Origin: Bacteroidota bacterium
GTDB lineage: Bacteria > Bacteroidota > Bacteroidia > 2-12-FULL-35-15
Assembly: GCA_025363555.1 (NCBI GenBank)
Contig: JANYDQ010000236.1
Coordinates: forward strand, 3,741-67,740
Direction of reading: 5' to 3'
DNA: 64,000 nt
The notes below the pieces were generated by a model, which searched no databases, had not been told where the DNA came from, and saw nothing but the letters and a program-made list of their open reading frames with translations. The translations under genes and the position numbers were made by a program. Positions 3,312-64,000 of this stretch are shown here, one piece after another. The stretch's first letter is position 1, and each line of letters begins with the position of its first letter.

Positions 3312-3405
3312 CCCCGATGAAGAATCGGGGGTCGGGCTTTCCGCTTCAATCTTTTTTGCCCCCCGCCATTTGCAACGCAACAAAAAAGGATTTTCGCTAC
3401 AATCC
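3312..3405. repeat. GC-rich islands in an AT-rich spacer (hairpin plus two TTTCSGCTWCAATC words)
   Basis: CCCCGAT-gaaga-ATCGGGG hairpin (3312-3330); GGGCTTTCCGCTTCAATC and GGATTTTCGCTACAATCC about 54 nt apart; resembles REP-like intergenic words common in Bacteroidota. Confidence 0.3.
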
Positions 3406-3482
3406 CTCACGCTGCGCATCGGGAAGTTCGTTCGTAATGCGTTTTTTGATTTTTAGTTCGCCACTATTGTTATCTAAGGCAA

Positions 3483-5586: not shown

Positions 5587-8500
5587 ATGCCAACGTCTAA
5601 AAAAGCAACTACGAAAAAGCCAGCTGAAGTAAAAAAACTTCGGAGCAAATCAGATGTGCTTAAAAAAACACGAACAGAACAAAAATCAAAATCACCATTG
5701 CCTGCTAAGGAACCTAAATGGGATTCGTTTTTAAAATATTCTGACCACATCATCCTGCTACTTGACAAAAAAGGGAATATAATAGACAGCAATGAATATT
5801 TGAAAGGAGATAAAAATGAAAACATCCTTGGAACTTCTGCTTACCGTTTCTTTTCAAAAGTTTCGGAAAAAAAAATAAGAAATGCAATCGAAAATGTTTT
5901 CAAAAAAGGAAAGCCACAAAAATTTGAATTGATGAGCTGGGGCGATGATAATGGAATGGCTTATTATTCTGCCAGTGCTTCCCCTCATTTTGAAAACAAA
6001 GAAATAACAGCAGTGATTATCCATGCCATTGATACAACAGAAAAAAAAGAAACCAAAGACGCATTAAAATTAAGCGAAGAGAAATACCGGAAATTGTCGG
6101 ATGCTGCTTTTGAAGGAATAGCAATACATCAAAATGGCAAAGTGGTAGAAATAAACAAAGCGGTACATAAAATATGTGGATTTGAAGAAGATGAAATTAT
6201 CGGGCATTCCATTTTTGATTTTATTCATCCTGATTTTCACTCCACTGTAATCGAAAAAATAAAAAACGAAGATTCCAACCCTTACGAGATAAAGATGTTT
6301 CGAAAAGGGAATAAAGAATTTTGGGCAGAGATTTTAGGAACCCAAATTATTTACAATAGCTTTCCCGCAAGAGTTTCAGCTATACGTGACATCACTTTTC
6401 AAAAAGAATCGGAAAATAAAATTCACGAAAGCGAAAGAAAATTTTCTGTCTTATCCAATAATTTTCCCGGTATAGCCTATCGGTGCAATTTGGACCATAA
6501 CCTTACCATGCAGTTTTTAAGTAATGGATTTTTTAAACTCACAGGATATAATTCAGCAGATTTTGTGAACAATAAAAAAAGAGCATTCAATGATATTATC
6601 CATCCTGATGACAGGGGAAATAAAAAGTTGAAAAAGGCATTGCAAAATAAGGAAATTTACGAATTGGAATACCGAATTATTACGGCTGATAACAAAATAA
6701 AATGGGTTTGGGAGAAAGGGCAAGGAGTATTTGACACCAAGGGGAATCTTATGTTTTTAGAAGGATTTATTGCTGATATTAACGATAAAAAACAATATGA
6801 AATTGAATTAAATAATAGCCGGGAAAATTATAAAAGTTTGATAGATAATTCCCCGGATGGAATATTTATTCTTGTTGAAGGTATAATAGAATTTGCGAAC
6901 AAATCTGCATTGGAAATTTTAGAAGCGAAAACAGAAGAAGTGCAATTTAAGTCTGTTTTTAATTTTATTCCTATTGAATTTCATAATTTTGAAAGGAACC
7001 GCATTGCACGAATTCAGGATGGAGAGCAGGTTCCTTTTACTGAAATAAAAATGATAACGGTCAAAGGAAACATTGTAGATATAGAATCAAAACCAACTCT
7101 TTTTACCTACAATAACCTGAATGCCACCTTGGTAGTTTTGCATAATATCTCTACTCAAAAACAATTATTAAAACAACAATTATTAACACAGATAGCAGAA
7201 GAAACGAATAAAAAACTGGAGCATCAAATTGCGGAACGAAAAAATGCCGAGCGCATTTTACAAAGCAATCAAAACTACACCCGACTTTTAATTGAAAGTT
7301 CACTTGATATGATATGCGCTACTGATAAGAGCGGAAACATTACCGAGTTTAATACTGCCGCACAGAAAATATTCGGATATGAATTGGAAGAAGTGATGGG
7401 TAAATCGGTACAAATGCTGTATGCAAACCCAACCGACAGAACACACATTAAAGAAAATGAATTAGTAGGAAAAGGGATATATATAGGAGAAGTTGTAAAT
7501 ATCAAAAAGAACGGAGAAAAATTTATCTCCTTTCTTTCAGCATCAATATTACAAAATGAGGAAGGTGTAATTATCGGAGCAATGGGTGTGTCAAGGGACA
7601 TTTCAGAATCAAAAAAATCTGAACAGGAATTGCGGGCGAGTGAAGAAAGGTATAGGGCAATTTACAATCAGGCTTACATCGGAATTGCTAAAGTAAGTCT
7701 CAAAGGGCAATTTTTACAGGTGAACGAACAGTTATGTATTATCATGGGTTATTCAAATTCAGAACTTTGCCAAAAGGAATTCGCTGATACTACCGTACCT
7801 GAAGATGTTAAATTATCCATTGATTTCAGGGACAAATTAGTGAGTGGAGAAGTTGATAAAACCACTTTTGAGAAAAGATACTTTCATAAAAGCGGTAAGA
7901 TAGTACATGCCAATTTAACCATTTCGCTGGTAAAAGACGAAGCAGGAAATCCTTCTCATTTTATTTCTGTGTTTCAGGATATATCCGAACGAAAAAAAAT
8001 AGAAAGAGAACAACAGACACAAGCCGCAAAACTAAAAGCGGTTTTTGAGTCCGGATCTCATTTGGTGTGGACAGCAGATAAAGATTCTTGCTTAACATCA
8101 TTTAATCGCAACTTTAAAATTTTTATTAAACAGCAATATGGAGTGGAAATTCATATCGGAACATCGATGATGAAAGACTCCATGATTTCTACTGAAGAAT
8201 ATAATTCTTTCTGGATAAAAAAATATGATGTAACTTTGTCCGGAATTCCGCAGTATTTTGAAACAAATTTTGTGGATGCAGCAGGAAATAATTTTTGGTA
8301 CGAATTTTTTTTAAATCCTATTTTTGATGAAAATAATAAAGTAGTTGAAATATCAGGAATTGGACATGACATTACCGAGAAAATAAAAGCAAACGAAAAA
8401 ATTCATCAATCATTGCAAGAAAAAGAAGTGCTTTTGAAAGAAGTTCATCATCGCGTAAAGAACAATTTACAGGTTATTTCCAGTATTTTAAATCTTCAAT

Positions 8501-9805: not shown

Positions 9806-9843
9806 CCATTTTGATTAACGGAATAGCTAATAAAGTTTAAGTC

Positions 9844-9877
9844 AAAAAACTCTTTACATTTTTGTAAAGAGTTTTTT
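9844..9877. terminator. bidirectional rho-independent terminator
   Basis: AACTCTTTACA-tttt-TGTAAAGAGTT 11-bp stem flanked by an A-run and a T-run, between convergent genes. Confidence 0.65.
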
Positions 9878-9912
9878 GCTTTCTAATTGATTTTTTTCTG
9901 CAAAACAATATC

Positions 9913-12285
9913 TCATAATTCAAACCCCCATTCATCCTTAAATGATTTATCTGGTGAAGCAGGCTTGTCAGGAATTTCCTTTTCAGTTTTTGAAGAATCG
10001 CTTTTATTTTTTTTATTTTTTTGAGTTGCAGTTTTCATTTCTTCTTTAAAATTTTTCTTTTTGGAAATAATTTCTTTTTTTTCTTGATGTGAATTAGTTG
10101 AGCTATTTTTATCAACCACTTCAACTAATGCAAAGTCTAATTGTTTTTTTACCAAATCTGCACGTTTTATTTCAATCCGAACTTGATCTCCTAAAGTAAG
10201 CACCTTACCATATTTACGCCCACGTAAACAATAATTTTCTTCATCAAAATAAAAATTATCATCACGCAATTCACGAATTCGCACCATACCTTCACAATGG
10301 TTCTCTATCAATTCTACAAAAATTCCCCATTCTGTAACCCCCGAAATAATTCCGTCAAACTCCTCTCCGATTTTATCTTCAAGAAACTGAACTTGTTTAT
10401 ATTTGATAGAAGCCCGTTCTGCATCTGCTGCCAACTTTTCCATATCCGATGAATGTTTGCATTGCTCTTCTAATTTATCTACATCCGGATTCTTCCCTCC
10501 ATCCAGATAATGTTGCAATAAGCGATGTACCATTACATCGGGATATCGTCGGATGGGAGACGTGAAATGGGTGTAATAATCAAACCCTAATCCATAGTGT
10601 CCGATATTTTTCGTAGTGTAAACAGCTTTTGCCATGGTACGAATAGCCAGCATTTCAATCATTCCCGCTTCCTTTTTTTGATTCACCTCTTTTAATAAAT
10701 TGTTCAAGGAATCGGCAACTCCTCTTTCATTTTTTACATTTAACTTATACCCAAACTTAGCAACAAATTCCGCAAAACTATTCAGTTTGTCAGGATTGGG
10801 TTTGTCGTGAATTCGATAAACAAAAGGTCGTTGAGAATCTAATTTTTTATCTTCCTTCGTTCCTTGTCCCTCGTCTCCTTTTTTCTTACCAACAAATTCA
10901 GCAACTTTTCTATTTGCCAAAAGCATAAAATCTTCAATCAATTGATTGGAATCTTTTGAAACTTTAAAAAATACACCGGTTGGATTTCCAACTTCATCTA
11001 AATGAAATTTCACTTCCATTTTTTCGAAAGCAATGCTTCCTTTCCTGAATCTATTTGCTCTTAATATTTTTGCTAAACGGTCGAGGGTTAATATTTCTTC
11101 TTTAAACTCGCCTTGTTCGGTTTCAATTATGGTTTGAGCTTCTTCATAAGTAAATCTTCGGTCCGAGTTTATTATCGTTCTTCCAAACCATTCGCCTATA
11201 ACTTCTGCGGCATCCGTCATTTCAAAAACTGCAGAGAAGCATAATTTTTCTTCTTTAGGACGCAGTGAACACACATTGTTTGATAATACTTCAGGAAGCA
11301 TGGGTACCACCCTATCCACCAGGTAAACTGATGTTGCCCTGGAAACTGCTTCTTTATCTATCATTGAATCGGCTTTTACGTAATGGCTGACATCGGCAAT
11401 ATGAACCCCGATTTCCCAGTTCCCGTTTTTTAATTTTTGAATTGAAAGTGCGTCATCAAAATCTTTAGCATCCACAGGGTCGATGGTGAAGGTGGTAATG
11501 TTTCTGAAATCTTTTCTTTTTGCAATTTCTTCTTCCGTAATTTTTACAGGAATTAAATCTGCTGCCCGTTCCACATCTTTTGGAAATTCATACGGCAAAC
11601 CATATTCAGCTAATATGGCGTGCATCTCGGTAGTATTTTCCCCCACATTGCCAAGCACATCTATTATTTCCCCTATCGGATTCACCCCGTTTTTGGGCCA
11701 TTCTGTAATCCGTGCTATTGCTTTTTGCCTGTCTTTAGCTCCCTTCAGTTTTTCCAGCGGAATGTAAATATCAACATGCATTTTATTACTGCTTGGTACT
11801 AAAAAAGCAAACCGTTGTGAAAGCTGTATTGTTCCTACAAATTCTGTCTTGGCACGTTGAATAATTTCTAAAATTTCTCCTTCCTGTTTTCCTCTTTGTT
11901 TAGCGAATAAACGCACTTTCACAATATCTCCGTGCATGGCGTTGAGCGTTTTCTTTGGATTTATCAATACATCGTCTTCGGTTTCTTCAGAAACAATATA
12001 GGCTATTCCGCTGCTGGTCATATCTACTTTTCCTGAAATAAATTTATCGATTGTTTTTATTTTGAATTTACCTCTTTCGGGTTCTGAAATAGTATCGTTA
12101 TTCTTTAATTCCAAAAGAATATCAGAAATTAATAAACGTTGCGACTGTTCGGTAATATGCAGTTCTGCTGCAATCTGTTTGTAGTTAAGCGTTTTATTGG
12201 TGTTCTTGGAAAGCACTTTTAAAACCTCTTCGAAGAGAAAATTTTTCTTCACTCCTTTTTTTCTGCTGTGATATTTTTTTGTCAT
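9913..12285 (-). CDS. rnr: ribonuclease R
   Basis: 790 aa; RNB catalytic core, S1 domain (GIISGVTEWGIFVEL), Lys-rich tail. Confidence 0.9.
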   Translation of the reverse strand: MTKKYHSRKKGVKKNFLFEEVLKVLSKNTNKTLNYKQIAAELHITEQSQRLLISDILLELKNNDTISEPERGKFKIKTIDKFISGKVDMTSSGIAYIVSEETEDDVLINPKKTLNAMHGDIVKVRLFAKQRGKQEGEILEIIQRAKTEFVGTIQLSQRFAFLVPSSNKMHVDIYIPLEKLKGAKDRQKAIARITEWPKNGVNPIGEIIDVLGNVGENTTEMHAILAEYGLPYEFPKDVERAADLIPVKITEEEIAKRKDFRNITTFTIDPVDAKDFDDALSIQKLKNGNWEIGVHIADVSHYVKADSMIDKEAVSRATSVYLVDRVVPMLPEVLSNNVCSLRPKEEKLCFSAVFEMTDAAEVIGEWFGRTIINSDRRFTYEEAQTIIETEQGEFKEEILTLDRLAKILRANRFRKGSIAFEKMEVKFHLDEVGNPTGVFFKVSKDSNQLIEDFMLLANRKVAEFVGKKKGDEGQGTKEDKKLDSQRPFVYRIHDKPNPDKLNSFAEFVAKFGYKLNVKNERGVADSLNNLLKEVNQKKEAGMIEMLAIRTMAKAVYTTKNIGHYGLGFDYYTHFTSPIRRYPDVMVHRLLQHYLDGGKNPDVDKLEEQCKHSSDMEKLAADAERASIKYKQVQFLEDKIGEEFDGIISGVTEWGIFVELIENHCEGMVRIRELRDDNFYFDEENYCLRGRKYGKVLTLGDQVRIEIKRADLVKKQLDFALVEVVDKNSSTNSHQEKKEIISKKKNFKEEMKTATQKNKKNKSDSSKTEKEIPDKPASPDKSFKDEWGFEL

Positions 12286-14021: not shown

Positions 14022-14086
14022 GTAATATATTGATATGTAATTTATTGTTTGGTTTTAATTACCTTTAAAAAGGTTTGTTAATTCCA

Positions 14087-14170
14087 AAATAACGTTTGTT
14101 TTTTACGAAATAACATTTGGTTTTTGATAAAAACCATTTGGTATTTGGCAAAAACCAACATTGTTATTTG
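14087..14170. repeat. four 21-nt-phased A-tract/T-tract units
   Basis: AAATAACGTTTGTTTTTTACG / AAATAACATTTGGTTTTTGAT / AAAAACCATTTGGTATTTGGC / AAAAACCAACATTGTTATTTG. Confidence 0.6.
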
Positions 14171-20686: not shown

Positions 20687-20720
20687 GCGACTTATTTTTT
20701 ACAAAGATAAGTTTTTTACT

Positions 20721-22292
20721 TTATTGCACTACCAGCTTACTGTTCATCACATTTTTATTTTCATCTTCTATTCTTACAAAATAAATTCCTTTTGAATAAC
20801 TGCTCATATCTATTGTTGCAGATTTTTGATTGTGGAGGATGGATTGTTGAATACTATTTCCTAAAACATCAGTTACTGTTAAAGAAGAGTTTTTTTGTTC
20901 TTCATTAAAAGTAACGGTGGTTTGGGAGGTGAAGGGGTTGGGGAAGATGGTGATTGAGGATTGTTGATTTCATTTATACCAGTATGGTGACACATCGGAA
21001 GTTCCTGACTCCCGCTTGTAGTATGAATCAAAGAATCTGCTATGGAATAAACAATCGCTCCGCTTCCAGTAATCGCAACAGGTGTTGTAATAGTTATTGA
21101 AGGGCTTCCAACAACAGTTACCGGATTTTGTTCCAAAAAATATCCGGTAGCACCATTTTCATCTGTTTTGATTAAGTAAATAGCATCCCCCAAAGCATAA
21201 TTCCTAATACTACCTGCAAGAATAAAACCTCCATCTGTTTTTGGTTGTCCAGATTGGACTTGGTCTATATACGTCCAACCATATGTTTTTGACCACACCA
21301 GGTTTCCAATAGAATCTGTTTTGATAGCATAAGGGTCATATATTTCAGCTATTGTTGGGCAAGTATATCCGCATAAAAAATACCCATGGTCGTTTGTTAT
21401 AGAAACAGAAAGTGCATAATTTTCAGAGCCGGTTCCAAAAGTTTTTGCAAAAACTACATTCCCATTTATATCTGTTTTCATTAACAAAACATCTGACCCA
21501 TAAACACCAAAACTATTGGTATAACCTGCAATTATGCCCCCGTCTGTAGTCAGTTTGATGGAAGATGCGGCATCAAATGAAGTGCCGCCATACGTTTTTG
21601 ACCAAAGCAAATTCCCGGTTGAATCTGTTTTGATTAAAATTAAATCACTACTACTTCCGCTGGTGTTATAATTATTGCCAACCACAATATATCCGTGATC
21701 ACTCGTTTGACAAACATCATAACCCCATCTGAAATAAGTGCCCCCAAAATTTCTTGTCCATAAAGTGTCTCCATTGGCATCTGTTTTTACCAGAAAAGCA
21801 TTTTCATTGATAGAGTCAAAACTTGCTTGTCCGGTAACAATAAAACCTCCATCAGAGGTTTGCTTTAGATTCATACCCCAACTTTTATAGGGGGCAGCAT
21901 AAATTTTTTCCCAAAAGAAATTTCCAAATGAATCGGTTTTCATCAAATTCATTTCATAATAATGATGAATATTAAAACTATTTGTTGCTCCAGTAATCGC
22001 ATAACCACCATCTGACGTTTGTTTTATACAATATGTAAAATCGGAATAATTTCCCTGGGCAATAATTTTTGTCCATAATGTATCACCATCAGAATTTGTT
22101 TTGACTAAGCAAATTCCATTTGCATATGTTGGGGAATTAGATTGTCCGGCAACAATAAACCCGCCATCTGTTGTTTGTTCCACAGAATAAGCTTCTTCTA
22201 TTCTTGAGTTTGCTCCTATTGTTTTTTGAAATGTGGTTTGTTGGGCAAAACCAAATTAAAACTAAAGTTATAGTACAACAATATATTTTCAT
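20721..22292 (-). pseudogene. T9SS type-A cargo with beta-propeller-type repeats, two apparent frameshifts
   Basis: The signal peptide (ATG 22292, MKIYCCTITLVLI) is out of frame with the 434-aa body. The C-terminal sorting domain (SSITIFPNPFTSQTTVTF...GIYFVRIEDENKNVMNSKLVVQ, stop at 20721) is in a third frame. Confidence 0.65.
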
Positions 22293-22526
22293 CAGTGTTT
22301 TGTTTTAATTCTTCGTAAAAGTAATCTATTTTTTAAACACAAAAAGTTTCCACCTTTTTAAAAGATGGAATCTTTAGTATTCCCAAAAACAATCCCGCTT
22401 TTTTTCAAAAGCGGGGGTAATTTCACAAAATTTTAAAGTACACTTATAAATAAGCGTTTTTCGTTCTTTGATTGAATAAATTAAATTATTTGCCTTTGTT
22501 TCAATGAAAATCCTGCTTGTAAAAGC

Positions 22527-22737
22527 CTGTTTTCAAAAAGGAAAAACTGTTTTCGGATAACAAAACAGTGTTTTCCGATTGGCAATGGGGTTTTTCTTAT
22601 CGGAAATAACATTTTCGTGATAGCAAAAAAGCCATTCCCGATTGGAAAAGAGATTTTTGCGATAGCAAAAAACGTTTTTGCTATCGCAAAAATCCTATTT
22701 CCGATTGGAAATGGAGCATTTCCGGCAGTGAGAACAA
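22527..22737. repeat. ten degenerate ~21-nt units, each a T-tract/A-tract palindrome
   Basis: Examples: TTTTGC-gata-GCAAAA, TTTTGC-tatc-GCAAAA, TTTCC-gatt-GGAAA. T-tract spacing is 20,21,21,20,21,22,21,21,21. Confidence 0.7.
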
Positions 22738-22876
22738 TTAAGAAGTGAGTATAAAAATTTGATATGTAAGAAGCAGAAGTAAAATGAAAGTCAATCCTAA
22801 AAAACTTAAATCGAAAAAAGATGAAAGCCAAATTAAAACTGGTTTTTCCAAGATGAAGGATAACGACCAAAAAGGA

Positions 22877-23209
22877 TTATCCTTTTTTTGCAATCAGGTT
22901 CATTTTTTCGCCAAAATGCTGGGCAAAACTTCTCATCTCTTTGGCGGCTTCGGTTTCGTTGGTGCCGCGTTCAAAAGTGTCTGCCATGGATAATAAACAT
23001 TGGTGATAAAATTGTTTCATTTCATCTGCCAGGAAATCTTTGGTCCATAAGTCGATGCGCAGGGTATTGTTTTCTTTTGCATCCCAAAGTGCTATCATTA
23101 CTGCTTTGCTGGTGCTTTGCTCGTTGGCATCGTCTGCGCTCCAGTCTATTTTTTCGGGCAAATTGTTTTCGTCAAGCGTTACTGTAAATTTAATTTCGGA
23201 TTGTTTCAT
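22877..23209 (-). CDS. gldC: gliding motility protein GldC
   Basis: 110 aa; LDENNLPEKIDWSA...DLWTKDF...FYHQCLLSMADTF resembles GldC as I recall it; immediately downstream of a GldB-like lipoprotein. Confidence 0.8.
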   Translation of the reverse strand: MKQSEIKFTVTLDENNLPEKIDWSADDANEQSTSKAVMIALWDAKENNTLRIDLWTKDFLADEMKQFYHQCLLSMADTFERGTNETEAAKEMRSFAQHFGEKMNLIAKKG

Positions 23210-23214
23210 CTGAT

Positions 23215-23255
23215 TTATTGTTAAATTGTTTTATTGTTAAATTGTTAAATTGTTT
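23215..23255 (-). repeat. 8-nt periodic AACAATWW leader directly upstream of gldC
   Basis: Coding strand AACAATTT AACAATTT AACAATAA AACAATTT AACAATAA ATCAG-ATG. Confidence 0.6.
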
Positions 23256-23288: not shown

Positions 23289-24299
23289 TTATTTCACCGG
23301 TTTATATTTTGCCCTTGTTAATATTTTCTGTGCATCTTTTTCATCCATGAGTTGTTGTAAAGAAACTCCGGGATTGGTTTTCAGGTATTGTTTAATAATT
23401 TGTCTGCCTATCCAGAAGCCCACCCTGGGAGGGGCTTCTTTGCTGAAGGCGGAGGTAAAAGGTCCGTCCGTGGTAAATTTCATGATGTCTGCCTGGTTGG
23501 TGGTGTACAATAATTTTTGGGCAATAAAATAACTCCACATATTAAATTCGTTTTGTGTGGAGTATTGGGTTTGCCTGTTAGTGTACTGTGTTTTCAAGGT
23601 ATCTGGTAATGCCGGGGTAAGTGCATCGGTGAGGTACATTATTTTTCCCATGTAAATAATTTGGGAAAGAAAATCGTTTTTATTCATCATGTAGGGAAAC
23701 TCATCGAGCATCCATCCGCGCATGGCATCGGGCAAAATGTTTTCTTTGGTCATAAAATTTATTTTGTAAAGCGGCAATCCCAGCATGGGGTAAAATTTGT
23801 TTTTTGTGCCCAGGTACATTTCGAGGCCTATGCCCAGGGTGCTGTCCAGGGTAACGATGGAATAATTGAACCCCGACATCATGGTTACTACTTCAGGCAA
23901 ATGTTTAGCCGGAAAATAATGTTTGAAATATTTAAACGATTGGGAGAATTCTTCTTTTAAATTATCGGTAGAAGGAAATTCTTTCTGGCAATCGGCAAAA
24001 GCCTGGCGCATATCTTTGTCGGTAATAAAAAGTTTTAGTTTCATTGCTTTTGACGAATCGTGCATTCCCCCATTATTTAAAACACCGCTTATATAAGAAT
24101 TAAAAAAGCTGCCGTATTTCTTTTTTAAAGTTGATACAGCTGCATCGGGATGAAGGGTATCCATATTAAAGACATCCTGCTCCAGCCTGTTAATGGTTAT
24201 TTGGGGCACTTCCACGTTGGACACATCTACCTTTAAATTATCATGACCGCAGGAAATAAGCAGCAGGAGAATAGGGAGGTAAGCAAGAGATTTTTTCAT
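23289..24299 (-). CDS. gldB: gliding motility lipoprotein GldB
   Basis: 336 aa; lipobox LLISC; size and gldB-gldC adjacency with nadE nearby as in Flavobacterium; called mainly on synteny. Confidence 0.7.
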   Translation of the reverse strand: MKKSLAYLPILLLLISCGHDNLKVDVSNVEVPQITINRLEQDVFNMDTLHPDAAVSTLKKKYGSFFNSYISGVLNNGGMHDSSKAMKLKLFITDKDMRQAFADCQKEFPSTDNLKEEFSQSFKYFKHYFPAKHLPEVVTMMSGFNYSIVTLDSTLGIGLEMYLGTKNKFYPMLGLPLYKINFMTKENILPDAMRGWMLDEFPYMMNKNDFLSQIIYMGKIMYLTDALTPALPDTLKTQYTNRQTQYSTQNEFNMWSYFIAQKLLYTTNQADIMKFTTDGPFTSAFSKEAPPRVGFWIGRQIIKQYLKTNPGVSLQQLMDEKDAQKILTRAKYKPVK

Positions 24300-30725: not shown

Positions 30726-30827
30726 TTACTTTTTTCCTTTTTTAGCTGCTTTCTTAGCTGCTTTTTTAGGAGCTGATTTTTTCGCTGCTTTTTTAGGAGC
30801 TGCTTTTTTTGCTGCTTTTTTAGCCAT
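30726..30827 (-). CDS. 33-aa Lys/Ala-rich histone H1-like protein (not in the ORF track)
   Basis: ATG...TAA reads MAKKAAKKAAPKKAAKKSAPKKAAKKAAKKGKK; a strong terminator follows immediately; the listed plus-strand ORF is its antisense image. Confidence 0.6.
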   Translation of the reverse strand: MAKKAAKKAAPKKAAKKSAPKKAAKKAAKKGKK

Positions 30828-31236
30828 GGTTTTTTTGTTTTAATTATTATGACACGAAGTACGATAAAATATTAATGCAAAAATTATTTATACTCCTTAT
30901 TTTATTAACACAAATTTGTTGATAACAGTGGCTGTGGTTTCTTGCAGTTTTTTTTTTCAGTCATTATTTAATTTTTTTATTCCTTGCGATAAACCGTTTT
31001 TATTTTATTCACCCTTGTACATATTGATTTTACTTATAGTGCAGGGCATCGTTGTTTTTCAATTAAAATTATTTTTTATAACTGATATGAAGAAACAGAA
31101 TTATTTTTTTCATGCGATGAGAAAAATAATTATTAAAATTATTTTTTATTTTTCCCAGTTTAATTTTTAAAACAGAATTTTTTTTCTAAAAAATAATTTT
31201 TTTCAATAAAACAAAAAACAATTTATTCATGATAAT

Positions 31237-34243: not shown

Positions 34244-35455
34244 TTAAACTATTTTAATTAAGTTTTTCTTTGTAAATAATCTTACCGGGTACCAGGCAGC
34301 AAAAAAACCAATAAGCAGTACTATAAATATAATAAGGAGTATATCCAATGAATGTATTTTTATCGGATAGGCATCTACCACATAACCCTGCGAAAGATTA
34401 ACCAATGAAAATTTTATTTGTAACCAGCACACTAGCATACCTAACACTAATCCAAGAAATGCACCTATTGTAGTAATCAATATCCCTTCCACTAAAAATA
34501 TTCTCCTTATCAATTTTACATCCGCTCCCATATTATTCAGGATTACAATGTCTTTCTTCTTTTCGATAATCAGCATGGTTAACGAACCTATGACATTGAA
34601 AGTGGCAATGATTAAAATAAACACAAGGATAATAAACACCCATAGTTTTTCCGATTTCATGGTTTTGTAAAGCATTTCATTTTGTTGCTCCCTGTTTTTT
34701 ACCACATAGTTATTGCCAAGAATGGAAATAATATGTTGCTGCACTTCTTCTTTATTTGCAGTTGGTGAAAGCTTTAATTCCATAGCAGTTACTTCATTGG
34801 TATAATCCAGCAACTGACGGGCTTTATCAATATCCATAATAACATATTTATAATCGAACTCGTCATTCACTGTAAACGCCCCTGCCGGATAGGCTTTCAT
34901 TTCGTTCATTCCATCCTCAGGATTTAATGAATTAGTATTCCCTCTCTTTGGAGCATAAATAGAAATAGGTTTAAACAATTCTTTGGGGCTTGCTTCCAGG
35001 ATATTGGCTATTCCTTTACCAATGATAATATTATTCTTCTCCAAACTAAAACTTCCTTCTCTTATCAACGTATCGAAACCACTCATTTTCCGAAAGCTAT
35101 TGCTCACTCCTTTAATAGTGGCAATACATTGTTTGTCATTAAACTTTAACAACGCATTGCCTTCCATCACTTCAGTATAATAAGCTATGTCTTCCATTGT
35201 TTTTAACGATTGAATTTCATTTGCAGAAGGATTGAATGTTTTTCCATGTTTTATAGTTACGGAAATATCAGGAGAGAACGAATTATAAAGTGATTGCACC
35301 AAATCGGTAAGCCCATTAAAAGCAGAAAGAACAATAACCAATGCCATGGTACCAATGCAGACACCAATAACCGAAACACCGGATATAATATTAATAGCAT
35401 TGTGCGATTTCTTAGAAATCAGGTATCGCCTGGCTATGAAGAAGGGGAGATTCAA
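34244..35455 (-). CDS. FtsX-like ABC transporter permease (LolC/E-type)
   Basis: 403 aa; N-terminal TM, large periplasmic domain, three C-terminal TMs; TTG start. Confidence 0.8.
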   Translation of the reverse strand: MNLPFFIARRYLISKKSHNAINIISGVSVIGVCIGTMALVIVLSAFNGLTDLVQSLYNSFSPDISVTIKHGKTFNPSANEIQSLKTMEDIAYYTEVMEGNALLKFNDKQCIATIKGVSNSFRKMSGFDTLIREGSFSLEKNNIIIGKGIANILEASPKELFKPISIYAPKRGNTNSLNPEDGMNEMKAYPAGAFTVNDEFDYKYVIMDIDKARQLLDYTNEVTAMELKLSPTANKEEVQQHIISILGNNYVVKNREQQNEMLYKTMKSEKLWVFIILVFILIIATFNVIGSLTMLIIEKKKDIVILNNMGADVKLIRRIFLVEGILITTIGAFLGLVLGMLVCWLQIKFSLVNLSQGYVVDAYPIKIHSLDILLIIFIVLLIGFFAAWYPVRLFTKKNLIKIV

Positions 35456-35495
35456 TTGCTATATTGTTGTATTGTTATATTGTTTTTGTTTCTTT
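35456..35495 (-). repeat. 8-nt periodic ACAATAYA leader directly upstream of the permease gene
   Basis: Coding strand AAACAAAA ACAATATA ACAATACA ACAATATA GCAA-TTG. Confidence 0.5.
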
Positions 35496-51096: not shown

Positions 51097-54000
51097 ATGA
51101 AAAAACTTTTACTACTACTAATCGTATTAACCACTTTATCAATTAAAACATTTGCACAAGCTTCACCCGAAGGAATAAATTACCAGGCTGTAGCCAGAAA
51201 TATTTCAGGCAACGCAATGTCCTTAACTCCCCTTACTGTTCGTTTTTCTGTGCACGATTTAACAGTTGGTGGAGCTATTGTTTACCAGGAAACGCATGGA
51301 ACCACCACAAATGTATATGGATTATTTACACTTGTTATTGGAAATGGTACTGTTATTACAGGTTCTTTTCCAACCATAAATTGGGGAGTTGGAAATAAAT
51401 TCCTGGAAGTTGAGGTGAATGATGGAGGCGGATATATCTCTATGGGAACAACTCAAATGATGAGTGTTCCTTATGCATTGTATGCAAAAACGGCAGGTGC
51501 CGTTGCAGGTGGAGTTAATGGACCAACTGGTGCTACCGGAGCAACCGGAATAGTTGGTATTACCGGAGCAACCGGGAATAATGGAACGAACGGAACTAAC
51601 GGAATTGCAGGAGTTACTGGTGCAACGGGTACTAATGGAACAAACGGAATAGCAGGAGCTACTGGTGCAACAGGTTCTAATGGTACAAACGGAACTAATG
51701 GTGTAGCAGGAAATACGGGTGTAACCGGAGCAACAGGTACAAATGGTATCAACGGAACAAATGGAACAGCAGGTGCTACTGGAGCCACAGGGATTGATGG
51801 TAGTACCGGAGCAACTGGTACCAACGGAACTAACGGAATTGCAGGAGCAACAGGAGTTACTGGTGCCACAGGTTCTATCGGAGCAACGGGAATAGGTGGA
51901 GCAACGGGTTCTGATGGAGCAACTGGTTCAATTGGTGCAACAGGGATAGCAGGAGCAACGGGTTCTGTTGGAGCAACGGGTTCAATAGGGGCAACAGGAA
52001 TAGATGGAGCAACCGGTTCTGTTGGAGCAACAGGTTCAATAGGTGCAACAGGGGTAGCAGGAACAACGGGTTCTGTTGGAGCTACTGGTTCAATAGGGGC
52101 AACTGGAATAGATGGTGCAACGGGTTCTGTTGGAGCAACAGGTTCAATAGGAGCTACTGGAATAGATGGCGCAACTGGTTCAATTGGCCCTACAGGTGCA
52201 ATAGGGGCAACTGGAATAGATGGTGCAACAGGGATAGCAGGAGCAACAGGTTCTGTTGGAGCAACTGGTTCAATAGGTGCAACAGGAGTAGCAGGTGCTA
52301 CAGGTTCTGTTGGTGCAACTGGTTCAACAGGTGTTGCAGGAGCAACGGGTTCTGTTGGAGCTACTGGTTCAATAGGTGCAACAGGAGTAGCGGGAGCAAC
52401 TGGTTCTGTTGGAGCTACTGGTTCTGTTGGTGCAACAGGAGTAGCAGGAGCAACGGGTTCAACAGGTGCAACAGGAGTAGCGGGAGCTACAGGTTCTGTT
52501 GGAGCAACTGGTTCAATAGGTGCAACAGGGGTAGCGGGAGCTACAGGTTCTGTTGGAGCAACTGGTTCAATTGGTGCAACTGGAGTGGCAGGCGCAACAG
52601 GAGTAGCCGGTGCTACAGGTTCTGTTGGAGCTACTGGTTCAATAGGAGCAACAGGGGTAGCTGGTGCAACAGGTTCTGTTGGAGCTACAGGTTCTGTTGG
52701 AGCAACTGGTTCAATTGGTGCAACAGGGATAGCAGGTGCTACTGGTTCAATAGGTGCAACAGGTGTTGCAGGATCAACGGGTTCTGTTGGGTCAACAGGA
52801 ACTACTGGGGTAACTGGTGCAACCGGCACCAACGGAACCAACGGAACCAACGGAACCAATGGTATAGCAGGAACTACGGGAGTAACTGGTGCAACAGGAG
52901 CAACTGGTGCAACTGGCGTAGGTCTATTAGGGTTAACTGGAGTTACTGGGGCAACCGGAGCAACCGGAACAAATGGAACTAATGGTTCTACAGGAGCAAC
53001 AGGTGCTGCTAATATCAATGGTACTATAAACAATGTTATTAAGTTTACTGCGGCAACAACAGGAGGTAATTCTCAAATTTTCGATAACGGAACAAATGTG
53101 GGTATTGGAGTACCTGCATATACCCCATCAAGTTTGCTTGAATTAAATCAAAATAATAACACCTCTACCGATGGTACATTACTTTCTATCACCAATACAA
53201 ACGGAGCAGATAATACAATTTCAGGAATTAGATTCAAATCTTCCACAGTAACTGGCAATCAAACTTATAAAGGAGGGTTATTTTTCCAAACTACAGCCAC
53301 AGCTGGCAATGGAAGGGGGGATATGATTTTGGCACTAAATACAAGTGGAGGTGCGGGAAATAATGTTAATGCTGCTGATGCAGTAATGATAATTAAAAAT
53401 TCAGGCAATGTTGGTATTGGAACTACTTCGCCAAATATTACCGGAATGACAAAAGCATTAACTGTATCTTCTGCCGAAACTTATATTAATAATGCACCTG
53501 TAGGTTTAGAATTAAAAGGTTCTACTCAAACCGGAAATGCTAAATTAGGACAAATCAGTTTTATTTCTGCTTTTGCATCCACCGAAAATGCAAGAATTGA
53601 AACAAGGACAAGTAATTCTGATGTAAGGGATGGTCAGTTAGCGTTTTATACAAGAAATACCTCTGTTGGTAATATTTTTGAAAGAATGACAATTGATGAA
53701 AACGGTAAAGTAGGTATTGGTACTTCTGCCCCTTCTGCTACTCTTCACGTTGTTGGAGGTGCACGGATTACCGGATTAGGTGGCTCTGGAATTGTTTCTG
53801 CTGATGCGCTTGGTAATTTAAGTGCTGGTGCAATTTCTGGTACCTTAAGCGGAGGCACTACCAACTATGTTCCAAAATGGTCTTCTGCTACTGCCTTATC
53901 TTCCACTTCTAATATTTATGATAATGGAACAGGTGTGGGCATTGGTACTACTGCTCCTACCACTACTCTTTCGGTGGGTAATGGTGCAACAGAAAAATTT

Positions 54001-55386
54001 CAGGTTGACGGTGCCACAGGCGATGTCAACTTCCTCGATCCACAGGGTTCTGTTACTTTCCCTGAACTTCCGGCAGGTTCAGGAGTTGCTGCTCCTATGA
54101 TTCAAATGTTTGCAAACGGGACTAATAACCTTGACAGAATGGTCATTGCACACAGTGCGGCTTTTCCAACGTATGGTTTGCAATACCAGGATGCATCTGA
54201 TAAATTTAATTTCCTTAGTAACGGCAATAATGTGATGACAGTAGATTTATCAGGTTCTAAGGTAGGGATTGGTATTTCAACTCCCGCCTCCTTATTGCAT
54301 GTTAACGGTGCTGCCCAATTGGGTTTGGCAGCTAACACCACAGGGCAGTTAATATTCAGCAACTCTCAAACAGCTAATTCTGTTACTATTCTTTCGGGGT
54401 TTACTAATGCTGCATCAGGAGGTCCTTACACCATTACATTACCTGTTTCCAATCCTACAGTTGCTAATTCGGCTTTAATAAGCACAACTTCAGGAGCTAA
54501 TGCTACCTTGGCTTGGGCTGCTCCGGGCGCTGCAGGTGCAGGACTGCCAGCAGGTACAAAATGGAAAACAATGGTATTCGACTCTGCAACCTCTTTATGG
54601 CAAGCCTCCAGTAATATTTATAATACAGGAACAAATGTGGGAATAGGTATTACATCGGGTATTACTTCAAAATTAGATGTTGCCAATAATCTTGTAACCT
54701 GGTCGCAAGGTGCAACCACTTATTCTAATGCCATCCAGGGAACAACAACTGGTTCTGCTTTTTCAAACAGAGGAACCATGGGGGTAAGTTTTGCAACCGG
54801 GACAAATGGTATCGGGATTTATGGAGCTTCTAACGGTTCAGCTACCAATAATATGGGTGTTTACGGTGATGCGCAATTTGGAACAAATAATTATGCAGGG
54901 TATTTTGACCATGGAAATGTGCTAATTAAAAATAATTTGCAGGTAAATGGAATGGTGCGATTGGGTTCTGAATCAGGTACTGCTCAACCTCCTACATATT
55001 CTTCCGCCCCTTCTTCCACCGGTCTAGTTGTCAGAAGAGTATATTCTACTGTTCAAACTGCGGGATCTGTTGTTGCTTTAACTGACCAAATAAGTCTTGA
55101 ACGCGATGGTACTTCTGGTGGCTGGAGAATAAACAGGACAGGTGCCGGTACAAATATGGTTTGCAATGTTATAGCACTCAATTCATCGGGTACAAGTGTT
55201 AATATATCTAACAGTGCACTTGCAGCAGGCATAACTACTCTATATACCAATGCTCAAAATATAGTTTTCATCCACATTATGTTTGGCGACCCTTACAATG
55301 GAGGAAATACAACAGAGGTTACCCTTACGCGTAATTCAACCGATTATTTCTGGATGGGAACTATGACTTCTACTTTTAATCAATAA
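51097..55386 (+). CDS. collagen-like (Gly-X-Y) surface protein with tail-fibre-like C-terminal region
   Basis: 1429 aa; signal peptide ...KTFAQ; about 490 aa of G-X-Y; C-terminal half has five or more (N/K)VGIG(T/I) motifs; no T9SS sorting domain seen. Confidence 0.85.
51520..53010 (+). repeat. coding tandem repeat (GATGS[VI][10 protein letters not shown][VI][AD] units)
   Basis: Near-identical 27/54-nt units; one register break (GVGLLG); generates a spurious 520-aa antisense ORF. Confidence 0.9.
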
Positions 55387-55641: not shown

Positions 55642-55893
55642 ACAACATGTTTGTTGTAAAGCACAAGATGTTTGTTGTATCATACAACATGTTTGTTGTA
55701 TCACACAACATGTTTGTTGTATCACACAACATGTTTGTTGTATCACACAACATGTTTGTTGCATAGCACAACATGTTTGTTGCATAGCACAACATGTTTG
55801 TTGTATCACACAACATGTTTGTTGCATTACACAACATGTTTGTTGTATCACACAACATGTTTGTTGTATAGCACAACATGTTTGTTGTAACAT
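55642..55893. repeat. 12 x 21-bp perfect-phase tandem array
   Basis: ACAACATGTTTGTTG core plus 6-nt variable linker; no spacers; ends 43 nt before the ATG at 55937. Confidence 0.95.
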
Positions 55894-55936
55894 ACAAGAA
55901 TGATGAATAAGTGGTGTATAATACTTAAAAAAACGA

Positions 55937-61205: not shown

Positions 61206-64000
61206 CTATTTCACCAACATTACGCTTCCCTGCTCTTTCGCTATTTCACCATTACAGAAGGTAACTTCCAGTTTATACACAAATTCATTATTGTTCATGG
61301 GCAGACCATGCAATGTCCCATCCCAGCCTTCAAGCAAATCCGATGTTTCAAAAACTTTTTCACCCACACGGTCAAATATTTTCAGGTTGATGAAATCAAT
61401 ACCTCTGCCCTGCACAAGAAGAATATCATTATTTCCATCACCATTTGGAGAAAATCCTGTCGGCATAAAATAAGTATAACGAGCAGTAACGTTTACCACT
61501 GTAGTATCCGTATTAACGCAACCGTTCACATCCTGGTAGGTAACATAATATTGTTGACTTAGGTTAGGAGAAACAGTGGCTGTTTGGCACGTGCCACAAG
61601 CAAGGTGAATGTTTGGTCCCCACAAATAAGAAAGTCCTGTAGGTTGAGCCGTCAGGTCCGTACTTTCACAGGCATTGATACTCGTATTTCCCGTAATGGT
61701 AACAGGTATAGGTGTTACAATATGTATGTAACCGGTTCTTATCATCGTATCCGTCCCTCCCGAATTGCTCACAATTAATGTTACAGTATAGTTTCCCGGG
61801 GCGGAATAACACACATTAATAGGTCCGCTGGTGATGGCAGTAGCAGGTGTCCCCCCCGGAAATGACCAACTCCAGGTCGTTGGTGGTCCTATACTCAAAT
61901 TAGTAAAGTTAACACAACCGCTGTTGCAAAGCAATGTGTCATTTGCCACAAAGTTGGCAGTTGGCGGGGTACAACTGTTTACGGTAACTGTGGCAACAGC
62001 CGTATTCGAACAACCGTTTGTGGTTCCAGTTACCGTGTAAGTAATAGTTCCTAAAGTGCCAGGTGTGGCCGTGGCAGTGCTCACTCCAGTTGAAGTGGCT
62101 CCTGCACTCCAATTATAGGTAGTTCCACCTGTTGCCGTTAAAGTAGCAGCAGTTCCTAAACAAATAGATGGCGAATTAACTGTTACTACCGGAATCGGGT
62201 TGGCAGTAATAGTTACCTGAGAAGTGGTTGGCGCACATGGCGAACTGGTAATGGTCCATTGAAAAACATTCGCTCCGGTTCCCAATCCCGTGAGCCCCGA
62301 TGTGGGTGAGGTGGATGCGGTAATGGTTCCCGCTCCGCTTATTAATGTCCAAAGTCCTGAACCTATACTTGCGGTATTCCCGGCAAGTGTGGCAGTCGTT
62401 CCGCAAATAGTTTGGTTAAGTCCTGCTGCCGCTATGGTTGGTGCCGGGTTAACTGTTATCGTTACCTGCGAAGAGGAAGACGGGCAGGGAGCGTTCGATA
62501 TGGTCCATTGAAACACATTGGCTCCTGCCCCCAGGGCAGTAACCGTTGATGTCGGAGATGTCGGAGTAGTAATGGTTCCCGCTCCTGAAATTAATGTCCA
62601 TAACCCTGTGCCGGCAATAGCTGTATTTCCTGACAAAGTAGCCGAAGGGGTACAGATAGATTGATTTGCCCCCGCAACCGATACTGTTGGTGTAAGGGAT
62701 GATGTTATTGTTACCTGTGATGTAGAGGCAGGACAAGGCAGATTATCTATTTCCCATTGAAACACATTGGCTCCTGCACCCATCCCGGTAATGGTTGTGG
62801 TTGGAGAAGTTGGGGTTGTAATGGTTCCTGTTCCACTTATTAATGTCCAAAGTCCTGTTCCCACCACAGAAGTATTTGCTGCCATTGTTGCATTTGCTCC
62901 GCAAACGGTTTGGTTAGGTCCGGCTGCTGCTGTGGTTGGTCCTCCTGTATTGGTAATGGTTACCTGCGAGGAGGAAGAAGCACAAGGAGCATTGGAAATT
63001 GTCCATTGAAAAACATTAGCTCCTGCTCCTAAACCTGTAACTATTGATGTTTCTGATGTAGGTGTAGTTATTGTTCCTGTTCCGCTTACCAATGTCCATA
63101 AACCTGTTCCAAAGGTTGCAACGTTTCCGGCAAAGGTTGCCGATGTGGAACAAATGATTTGGTTCGCTCCCGCTGCCGCTAAGGTTGGAGTAGCTACTGA
63201 TGTTATAGTAACCTGCGATGTACTTGCCGGGCAGGGAAGATTATCTATTTCCCATTGAAACACATTGGCTCCTGCACCCATCCCGGTAATGGTTGTGGTT
63301 GGAAAAGTTGGAGTGGTGATTATTCCTGTTCCGCTTATTAACGTCCAAAGTCCTGTTCCTACAACAGGAGTATTTCCAGCCATTGTTGCATTCGCTCCGC
63401 AAACCATTTGGTTAGGCCCTGCAACTGCTGTGGTTGGTCCCCCTGTGTTGGTAATGGTTACCTGAGATGAAGAAGAAGGACAAGGCGCATTGGAAATTGT
63501 CCATTGAAAAACATTAGCTCCAACTCCTAAGCCTGTTAAGCCTGATGTTTCTGATGCAGTTGTGGTTATTGTTCCTGTTCCGCTTACCAATATCCATAAA
63601 CCTGTTCCAACGAGTGCCGTATTTCCTGCTAAGGTTGCTGTGGCTGAACAAATGGTCTGGTTAGGTCCTGCCGTGGCTAATGTTGGAGTAGCCACTGATG
63701 TGATGGTTACCTGTGATGTGCTTGGAGCGCAAGGGAGATTATCTATTTCCCATTGAAATACATTTGTTCCCAAGCCTAAGCCTGTTATTCCTGTTGTTGG
63801 AGATGTTGGTGTTGTAATTGTTCCGGTTCCACTAATTAAGGTCCAAAGTCCTGTTCCCACCATAGGAGTATTTGCTGCCATAGTTGCATTCGCTCCGCAA
63901 ACCGTTTGGTTAGGTCCTGCAACTGCTGTGGTTGGCCCTCCTGTGTTGGTAATTGTTACCTGGGATGAGGAGGAAGGACAAGGAGCATTGGAAATTGTCC
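61206..64000 (-). CDS. giant modular T9SS type-B (CHU_C) adhesin, 5-prime end beyond the window
   Basis: The frame stays open to position 64000. About 83-aa modules alternate (..VFQWEIDNLPC.. / ..VFQWTISNAPC..). PKD-like region; C-terminal FSPNGDGNNDILLV...GSVMLVK. Confidence 0.85.
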   Translation of the reverse strand, partial: TISNAPCPSSSSQVTITNTGGPTTAVAGPNQTVCGANATMAANTPMVGTGLWTLISGTGTITTPTSPTTGITGLGLGTNVFQWEIDNLPCAPSTSQVTITSVATPTLATAGPNQTICSATATLAGNTALVGTGLWILVSGTGTITTTASETSGLTGLGVGANVFQWTISNAPCPSSSSQVTITNTGGPTTAVAGPNQMVCGANATMAGNTPVVGTGLWTLISGTGIITTPTFPTTTITGMGAGANVFQWEIDNLPCPASTSQVTITSVATPTLAAAGANQIICSTSATFAGNVATFGTGLWTLVSGTGTITTPTSETSIVTGLGAGANVFQWTISNAPCASSSSQVTITNTGGPTTAAAGPNQTVCGANATMAANTSVVGTGLWTLISGTGTITTPTSPTTTITGMGAGANVFQWEIDNLPCPASTSQVTITSSLTPTVSVAGANQSICTPSATLSGNTAIAGTGLWTLISGAGTITTPTSPTSTVTALGAGANVFQWTISNAPCPSSSSQVTITVNPAPTIAAAGLNQTICGTTATLAGNTASIGSGLWTLISGAGTITASTSPTSGLTGLGTGANVFQWTITSSPCAPTTSQVTITANPIPVVTVNSPSICLGTAATLTATGGTTYNWSAGATSTGVSTATATPGTLGTITYTVTGTTNGCSNTAVATVTVNSCTPPTANFVANDTLLCNSGCVNFTNLSIGPPTTWSWSFPGGTPATAITSGPINVCYSAPGNYTVTLIVSNSGGTDTMIRTGYIHIVTPIPVTITGNTSINACESTDLTAQPTGLSYLWGPNIHLACGTCQTATVSPNLSQQYYVTYQDVNGCVNTDTTVVNVTARYTYFMPTGFSPNGDGNNDILLVQGRGIDFINLKIFDRVGEKVFETSDLLEGWDGTLHGLPMNNNEFVYKLEVTFCNGEIAKEQGSVMLVK

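Follow-up and report, generated by a model that had tools for sequence, protein, structure and literature searches.

Repetitive extragenic palindromes and bacterial interspersed mosaic elements (REP/BIME) are built of imperfect palindromes that alternate in orientation and cluster in extragenic DNA, either between cistrons or at the 3' ends of genes, and both protection of mRNA 3' ends and binding of gyrase and IHF have been proposed for them. Palindromic sites phased by helical turns are also known from operators. The ARG-box pairs of ArgR are 18-bp palindromes placed about 21 bp apart from centre to centre, the type I K-box of ComK reads A4N5T4-N8-A4N5T4 with a period of 21, and the heptad arrays of the omega repressor are helically phased tandem operators. 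The sopC centromere of the F plasmid consists of 12 units of 43 bp, each carrying a 16-bp inverted repeat that is bound by SopB (PMC3177203). More generally, intergenic tandem repeats are common in bacteria, and their function is mostly unexplained (PMC6344855, PMC12418385). Here, the array at positions 22527-22737 (W1) of a 64,000-nt stretch of contig JANYDQ010000236.1 (the window) is compared with these systems. W1 is composed of head-to-tail tandem units in non-coding DNA and lies in the spacer that follows gldC. It is a genuine, old and phase-perfect quasi-palindromic minisatellite with a 21-bp period, and it belongs to a clade-specific family that keeps its period and its positions but not its sequence.

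W1 resembles REP/BIME in its imperfect palindromic units, in their orientations and in its extragenic location. However, REPs form one genome-wide family of ~35-nt units that is found at hundreds of sites and is mobilised by REP-associated tyrosine transposases (RAYTs), whereas the arrays described here consist of private 21-nt units in strict head-to-tail phase, and the W1 motif is not dispersed. The likeness to sopC and to the parC iterons of pSK41 and R1 lies in about 10-12 tandem units, a 16-bp dyad and a period of whole helical turns, and W1 is likewise built of tandem direct units spaced by whole helical turns with a dyad in each, which are putative protein-binding sites. In plasmid centromeres, protein coats one face of the array, and a similar coating of W1 may be proposed by analogy. 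Such centromeres differ in that W1 lies in a chromosomal housekeeping context (the gldB-gldC-nadE and fatty-acid-synthesis region), that no par or rep gene was found near it by Pfam scans and that several arrays of different sequence occur within 64 kb. W1 also falls into the 14-18-bp class of palindromic sites phased by helical turns, and its layout, (T4-N8-A4-N5)n, has the period and the A/T-tract geometry of the ComK K-box, with sites in either orientation. Known phased operators, however, comprise 2-10 short promoter sites with a regulon-conserved motif, whereas the 8-10 sites of W1 are not near a promoter, and conservation of their motif is seen neither at the orthologous loci of relatives nor across a regulon. 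The order of tandem repeats, terminator and gene recalls ToxI, where units of ~34-45 nt accompany an endoribonuclease toxin, but W1 has 21-nt units and is followed by a gene for a cargo protein of the type IX secretion system (T9SS). Finally, variable-number tandem repeats, minisatellites and eukaryotic satellites resemble the arrays in slippage or unequal exchange and in strain-level turnover of units, which is shown below for the sister array W2 of the window, and satellites also conserve unit length while their sequence drifts. Literature searches turned up no account of 21-nt dyad arrays from Bacteroidota. For bacterial intergenic repeats, the searchable literature likewise does not describe 21/42/63-bp quantisation combined with hypervariable linkers beside palindromic cores and with arrays that stay in place across species. 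Scans of W1 against Rfam 15 by gathering score and by E-value gave no match at the gathering score and only miRNA-like hairpin hits below threshold. Consistently, an earlier reading made from the letters of this DNA (the sequence-only reading) had named no described element class for W1.

Phase and units of the W1 array

Ten units had been counted in W1 (u1-u10). Eight of them, u2-u9, are good units, but the end units u1 and u10 are decayed (Table 1). The consensus TTTYSCGATWGSRAAA, with at most two mismatches allowed, matches at 22550, 22571, 22592, 22613, 22634, 22655, 22676 and 22697, and the spacing is exactly 21 nt throughout. It has 14 matches in the window compared with 3.1 ± 1.9 in shuffled sequences. 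The 4 matches outside W1 (1-2 mismatches) are at the chance level of about 3 expected in 64 kb, and the W1 motif is not enriched in 1 Mb of related loci. Within these 64 kb of the genome and the related loci, the unit is thus not dispersed in the manner of a REP/BIME-type element.

The identity of W1 with itself at a lag of 21 nt is 0.584 (0.627 for the core), compared with 0.266 ± 0.037 in 1000 dinucleotide shuffles, none of which reaches the observed value (z ~9). Nor do shuffled sequences attain it when lags between 5 and 63 are all considered. This bears out the claim of the sequence-only reading that W1 is a non-random dyad array with a 21-nt phase. Identity at a lag of 63 nt is 0.71 and exceeds that at 21 nt, with a 63-bp super-repeat of the form A-B-A. 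Spacings of 20 and 22 nt, which had been listed before, are indeed seen, but they are not slips of the unit phase and arise from a 1-nt internal shift in u5 that is compensated inside the unit. Two units, u4 and u8, have the opposite orientation to the rest. W1 has diverged from its consensus by ~27% (46 of 168 cells) without net indel, and if about 3 indels are expected, the Poisson probability of finding none is about 0.05. Tracts of T4-5 and A4-6 alternate every 10-11 bp, and the linkers are a few recurring variants of 5 nt.

Dyad symmetry and the conserved centre

The two arms of the W1 units pair in 80% of cells when G-T is counted, compared with 50-63% when the partner is slid, and dyad symmetry is therefore present at the consensus level. 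The sequence-only reading had gone further and proposed that palindromy is kept by compensatory changes within each unit. This proposal is not borne out statistically. When the 3' arms were dealt among the units, 76.2 ± 3.9% of cells still paired, and 110 of 500 such shuffles attained the observed value. Strict Watson-Crick pairing covers 42 of 60 cells, and only u7, u8 and u9 are perfect. An exchange between C-G and G-C is limited to one column pair in related units, and the arms fall in effect into two types, A (TTTTGC/GCAAAA) and B (ATTTCC/GGAAAT). The asymmetry between wobble cells (6 G-T, 3 A-C) is not significant.

What is conserved in W1 is the centre together with the TT, AT and AA columns, and not just the potential to pair. 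The invariant columns (TT at 4-5, AT at 10-11 and AA at 16-17) are symmetric about the dyad centre. The 8-nt centre CCGATTGG is identical in the B-units u3, u6 and u9, whose 13 remaining columns include 8 that are variable (hypergeometric P = 0.006).

A clade-specific family of 21-bp arrays

The comparison of gldC loci covered 160 sequences, half of them (80) from genomes and half (80) from metagenomes. The closest relative is L001 (contig CANJYB010000017), in which the spacer after gldC carries a different 21-nt array, L001a, composed of 13 copies of ACATTGCGATAACTATACTCC, 280 nt after gldC, with a 63-nt super-repeat; next come a hairpin and a convergent gene. A weak array is present in the same spacer of L057. 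The comparison of orthologous spacers that the sequence-only reading had called for gives a divided answer: sequence is not preserved past the gldC stop codon, but a 21-nt array recurs in L001 and, weakly, in L057. Since L001a faces a convergent gene, the association is with the spacer after gldC rather than with a cargo gene. The only other contig with W1 (L081) is identical to it and ends inside the array.

Two sister arrays, W2 and W3, are present in the window (Table 1), and W1 and W2 have in common the 6+4+6+5 layout described before. The terminator preceding W3 belongs to a PKD/CHU_C cargo gene that follows a gene for an extracytoplasmic function (ECF) sigma factor. W2 lies in a conserved module in which a giant collagen-like gene is followed by CHU_C, PorP/SprF and OmpA-like genes. 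In two other species (L295, ERZ28613009 scaffold_51, and L298, ERZ27313323 k141_483389; CHU_C 71-72% identical), the orthologous spacer contains a 21-nt array of unrelated units, namely 8 copies of AATGATTCTAACAGTTGGTAA (L295a, 9979-10150) and about 7 copies of TTCTTAGGAAGTTTAAGAAGC (L298a, 9824-9962). A second array of L298, L298b, is located in a convergent spacer and has 8.7 copies of AAAGATTTATCTTTATTGACC with a 63-nt super-repeat. Thus, an array can persist in the same spacer at a 21-bp period between species while its units are wholly replaced. Because the spacers of distant CHU_C orthologues (54-58% identical) are 15-69 nt long and have no arrays, the phenomenon is limited to the close clade.

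Between strains, the units of an array are reshuffled. In other samples of the window species (L305 and L306, positions 1-214), the 15-nt dyad of W2 is unchanged and 7 of 10 comparable linkers differ, the linkers being 5-6 nt long across strains. Variant cells make up 1 of 180 in the core of W2 versus 16 of 72 in its linkers (P ~3e-4), and 3 of 120 versus 15 of 48 in L298b. In practical terms, the arrays break short-read assemblies (L081, L305 and L306 end inside arrays) and yield spurious open reading frames (ORFs) and N-terminal extensions. The public gene call P0004 (308 aa, L295 10001-10927) runs through the array and adds a false N-terminal extension of 58 aa to the CHU_C protein, and a public 61-aa ORF call at 14610-14795 of L298 lies wholly within an array.

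A survey of ~1.1 Mb of related DNA covered arrays outside coding sequence in which a unit of 16 nt or longer is present in at least 3 copies. Their periods are 21 or 42 nt, once 41 and once 57 nt, and none falls into the ranges of 16-20, 22-26 or 28-40 nt. About 10 arrays were found in ~122 kb of the close clade, whereas the more distant relatives had 3 in ~940 kb and, in another 58 kb, none. In 6 of 10 independent arrays, the arms are perfect over 6 nt or more (individual P 0.0005 to 0.07). Among 12 arrays, 7 occupy co-directional, 3 convergent and 2 divergent spacers. In the arrays of the family, a conserved and mostly quasi-palindromic core of ~15-16 bp alternates with a free linker of ~5-6 bp, and every array has a private core sequence.

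It is possible, if doubtful, that W1 is a decaying copy of a neutral or selfish minisatellite produced by slippage in the long spacers of a duplication-prone lineage. The palindromic cores would then be a by-product, as hairpins favour slippage and template switching at quasi-palindromes "corrects" the arms, and the 21-nt period would be inherited or would reflect a mechanistic ruler. Such an origin fits the degeneracy of W1 and its decayed ends, the lack of sequence conservation in relatives, the occurrence of arrays in all spacer classes in roughly random proportions, the private cores, the reshuffled units of different strains and the non-significant arm covariation of W1. The lineage is also rich in 7-8-nt repeats, and intergenic tandem repeats in general are common and continuously replaced, with their function unexplained (PMC12418385; PMC6344855). 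However, neutrality leaves unexplained why unrelated arrays have a quantised period of 21/42 nt, why variation is confined to the linkers of W2 and why the phase of W1 is exact after its divergence from the consensus.

Several further arrays were seen in relatives. In L001, a 42-nt array at 6531-6652 (L001b; it contains TTCGGATAACGAA) precedes an ECF sigma gene at a distance of 17 nt, and in L002 (CANIQT010000004), a 21/22-nt array at 6554-6788 (TTGCAAAA-CTGT-TTTTGCAA) precedes a gene for an OmpR-type response regulator at a distance of 136 nt. These two arrays have half-sites in common with W1 units (TTCGGATAAC; GCAAAA/TTTTGC) at marginal significance. The motif TTSSGATARC, common to W1 and the L001 arrays, was rejected as a signal, being a weak hint that is not enriched outside arrays (30 hits in 1 Mb, ~16-20 expected). 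In more distant relatives, 42- and 41-nt arrays at 5240-5412 of L065 (= L120) and 1832-2049 of L056 have strong hairpins in their units, CCTACCTGC-N8-GCAGGTAGG and ATTTCGG-TG-CCGAAAT, respectively.

A possible two-turn platform at the DNA level

The reading favoured here, tentatively and short of even confidence, is that W1 is a slippage-renewed minisatellite that is retained as a DNA-level platform of two helical turns for protein assembly or curvature. Slipped-strand or unequal exchange would create and renew the arrays, often as 63-bp blocks, as is suggested by the differences between strains and by the 63-nt blocks themselves. Retention would result from identical cores that are spaced by two turns of B-DNA and hence all lie on the same face of the helix. 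The resulting platform could be coated cooperatively by a dimeric or nucleoid-type DNA-binding protein. W1 would in addition be intrinsically curved through its phased T and A tracts, and its role would be that of a structural or barrier element in the gldC 3' spacer and not that of a T9SS cargo operator, an RNA gene or a coding sequence. Such a DNA-level model best explains the strict period, the partition into core and linker, the symmetric invariant columns and the presence of sites in two orientations. Units in both orientations, as with u4 and u8, are expected for sites that are read by a symmetric dimer.

A and T tracts that alternate about every 10.5 bp, and the curvature expected from them, had been pointed out in the sequence-only reading. 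The alternation was confirmed, and two wedge models with assumed parameters place W1 in the top 0.8-1.5% of the 168-nt segments of the window in predicted curvature. Curvature as a common denominator of the arrays is rejected, being consistently predicted for W1 only.

Several observations weigh against a retained platform. Neither W2 and W3 nor L001a and the L002 array share the predicted curvature of W1. None of the 80 gldC loci from genomes that were scanned for the W1 motif contains it. When all 160 loci were scanned for repeats, L001 and, with a weak signal, L057 were the only ones with a periodic array after gldC. The closest relatives (GldC 91-95% identical, DNA ~78-85%) lose homology to the window at the gldC stop codon. 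The dyad is absent from three arrays, L001a, L057 and L295b. No binding protein for W1 was identified, and Pfam scans of the neighbouring ORFs identified no regulator gene adjoining it. Private cores and wholly different orthologous arrays are hard to square with one sequence-specific reader, whereas a non-specific reader would not explain why the cores are conserved. The 21-bp period could also be inherited by descent rather than selected.

A wider proposal, possible but on balance unlikely, is that the 21-bp arrays form an undescribed class of bacterial cis-elements whose function, by analogy with centromeric satellites, comes from two-turn periodicity and unit identity and not from sequence. 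They would be assembly sites for an architectural protein peculiar to the lineage or for an enzyme of the topoisomerase type, and W1 would be a decaying member of the class. The arrays would hold fixed intergenic positions while their sequences turn over by concerted evolution. If selection does act on period and unit identity and not on sequence, the arrays would be a bacterial counterpart of satellite DNA and would also indicate a DNA-architectural factor in an uncultured freshwater/soil lineage of Bacteroidota. Even as neutral sequences, they would bring to light a mutational ruler specific to this lineage.

Folding of the arrays as RNA

If the arrays are transcribed, their cores could pair with one another into long imperfect duplexes in which the linkers form internal loops. 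Arrays in 3' untranslated regions and intercistronic spacers could then serve, in the manner of REPs, as terminators, exonuclease blocks or RNase III sites, and W1 would stabilise or terminate the gldBC transcript. Such an RNA-level role is rather improbable, although it accounts for the private sequences, the homogeneous cores and the free linkers. W1 lies between the gldC stop codon and a terminator on the gldC strand, and the layout at L001a is alike. The fold of the whole W1 array has z = -7 to -9 relative to shuffles by virtue of inter-unit helices, notably the 20-bp stem of u7 and u8, and this palindrome is terminator-like because a U-rich tail, TCTTTTCC, follows it on the gldC-sense strand. 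W2, L295a and L298a are inside a junction that is a tight operon in distant relatives (spacers of 15-69 nt), and the alternation of T and C opposite G in L295a is compatible with U-G pairing on the sense strand.

However, the RNA-level role provides no reason for a strict 21-nt period. The hairpins of single W1 units are marginal (-0.1 to -5.9 kcal/mol), half of them being no better than shuffles, and the earlier claim that arm covariation is a sign of hairpin selection is not supported. Nor does the balance of wobble cells in W1 favour RNA pairing. The GAT centre, which would form the loop, is the most conserved part of the unit and not free to vary. Furthermore, L001a is not palindromic, two arrays occupy divergent spacers, and the arrays match no Rfam family.

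Genomic context of W1

The window is ordinary chromosomal DNA of an uncultured Bacteroidota with 37% G+C. Pfam scans identified plsX, fabH, yceD, rpmF, gldB, gldC, nadE and a Mur ligase gene, among others, around W1. On the minus strand, gldB is followed by gldC, W1, two terminator-like hairpins and a T9SS type-A cargo gene, in this order (Table 1).

Table 1. Positions of the three arrays, their distinct units and the features flanking W1 in the window
Feature	Position	Strand	Description
W1 core, units u2-u9, 21 bp each	22548..22715		16-bp quasi-palindrome TTTYSC-GATW-GSRAAA and 5-bp linker
Decayed end unit u1	22527..22547		CTGTTTTCAAAAAGGAAAAAC
Decayed end unit u10	22716..22737		GCATTTCCGGCAGTGAGAACA
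Mirror pair u7+u8	22652..22694	-	43-nt palindrome with 20-bp stem; TCTTTTCC after it on the gldC-sense strand
W2	55642..55897		12 copies of ACAACATGTTTGTTGT with variable 5-nt linker; ends 39 nt before the CHU_C gene start
W3	14073..14157		4 units of 21 nt, dyad GTTATTT-GCA-AAATAAC; convergent spacer, after a terminator
gldB	23289..24299	-	Lipoprotein gene, upstream of gldC
gldC	22877..23209	-	GldC-like (PF19937); stop codon 139 nt before W1
Terminator-like hairpin	22394..22415	-	CCCGCTTTT-GAAA-AAAAGCGGG and T-run; between W1 and the cargo gene
Second terminator-like hairpin	22348..22370	-	Between W1 and the cargo gene
T9SS type-A cargo gene	20690..22292	-	TxDGG repeats and Por_Secre_tail C-terminal domain; ATG at 22292

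The sequence-only reading had placed W1 upstream of this cargo gene and thereby implied an array of gene-specific operators, through which a dedicated transcription factor would control it. In support of such a function, 16-bp dyads at a spacing of 21 bp are like tandem operators, W2 ends close to the start of a cargo gene, and the L002 array and L001b are located upstream of an OmpR-type regulator gene and an ECF sigma gene. Nevertheless, it is very improbable, and the link of W1 to the cargo gene is weak. W1 is separated from the ATG of the cargo gene by 235 nt that include the two terminator-like hairpins. The signal peptide, the TxDGG body and the Por_Secre_tail domain of the cargo gene are each in another frame, with at least two frameshifts. 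Because its parts occupy three reading frames, the gene is a pseudogene or has (homopolymer) sequencing errors. In L001, the next gene is convergent. Moreover, three arrays lie in convergent spacers, the W1 motif is not above chance elsewhere in the window or in related loci, orthologous arrays have no common motif, and 8-13 sites far exceed the number in known operators. Scans for sigma-70-type and Bacteroidetes-type (TTTG...TAnnTTTG) promoters placed none at the arrays, and no Bacteroidetes-type match was found near W1.

The 129-aa ORF at 22481-22870 had been taken for a frame artefact, and this is upheld. It has no Pfam hit, a database-wide search for homologues not having been made. The opposite strand is equally open because the units are palindromic, and the variation among units is distributed over the codon positions as 14/13/19 and is not 3-periodic. 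Coding by W1 is rejected on these three grounds. In W2, linker variants close one frame, and the variants of L295a would be Leu/Pro/Arg changes. An open frame across W1 and a superficially ToxIN-like order of repeats, terminator and gene are what can be said for a heptad-repeat peptide, a repeat locus resembling clustered regularly interspaced short palindromic repeats (CRISPR) or a type III toxin-antitoxin RNA, and together these readings are barely credible. A CRISPR array is ruled out by the 16-nt core, the 5-nt "spacers" and the lack of cas genes among the W1-neighbouring ORFs in Pfam scans, whereas repeats of ~23-55 nt and spacers of ~25-60 nt would be expected. In the case of a type III toxin-antitoxin locus, the order of array and terminator is present, but the downstream gene is the frameshifted T9SS cargo gene and does not encode an endoribonuclease.

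Pfam scans found no RAYT (Y1 transposase) gene within the 64-kb window. A phage or plasmid origin was rejected as well, since viral contigs searched for exact copies of the two dyads contained single chance hits only.

Other repeats and features of the window

Octamer tandem repeats of the N-AACAAT type on the sense strand directly precede the start codons of gldC (23217-23254, ATTGTTAA), rpmF, which encodes L32 (19397-19450, ATTGTTTT), and an FtsX-like permease gene (35455-35484, ATTGTTAT). In many related loci, the gldB-gldC spacer contains 7-nt repeats of other sequences. As the lineage lacks Shine-Dalgarno sequences, these octamer and 7-nt repeats may function in leaders or in the initiation of translation.

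A Flavo-1 RNA (RF01705) at 3326-3417 on the minus strand, with 56.9 bits against a gathering score of 42, is the sole above-threshold Rfam family in the window. A 33-aa ORF, MAKKAAKKAAPKKAAKKSAPKKAAKKAAKKGKK, at 30726-30827 on the minus strand is rich in lysine and alanine and has the appearance of a small basic protein like histone H1; it underlies a 27-nt DNA repeat at 30744-30836, and its product could be a nucleoid-associated protein. Coding repeats are also present next to T9SS modules: a giant collagen-triple-helix-repeat protein gene at 51097-55386 has coding repeats of 9, 54 and 72 nt, and a PKD/CHU_C cargo gene at 62320-64000 has coding repeats of 498 nt.

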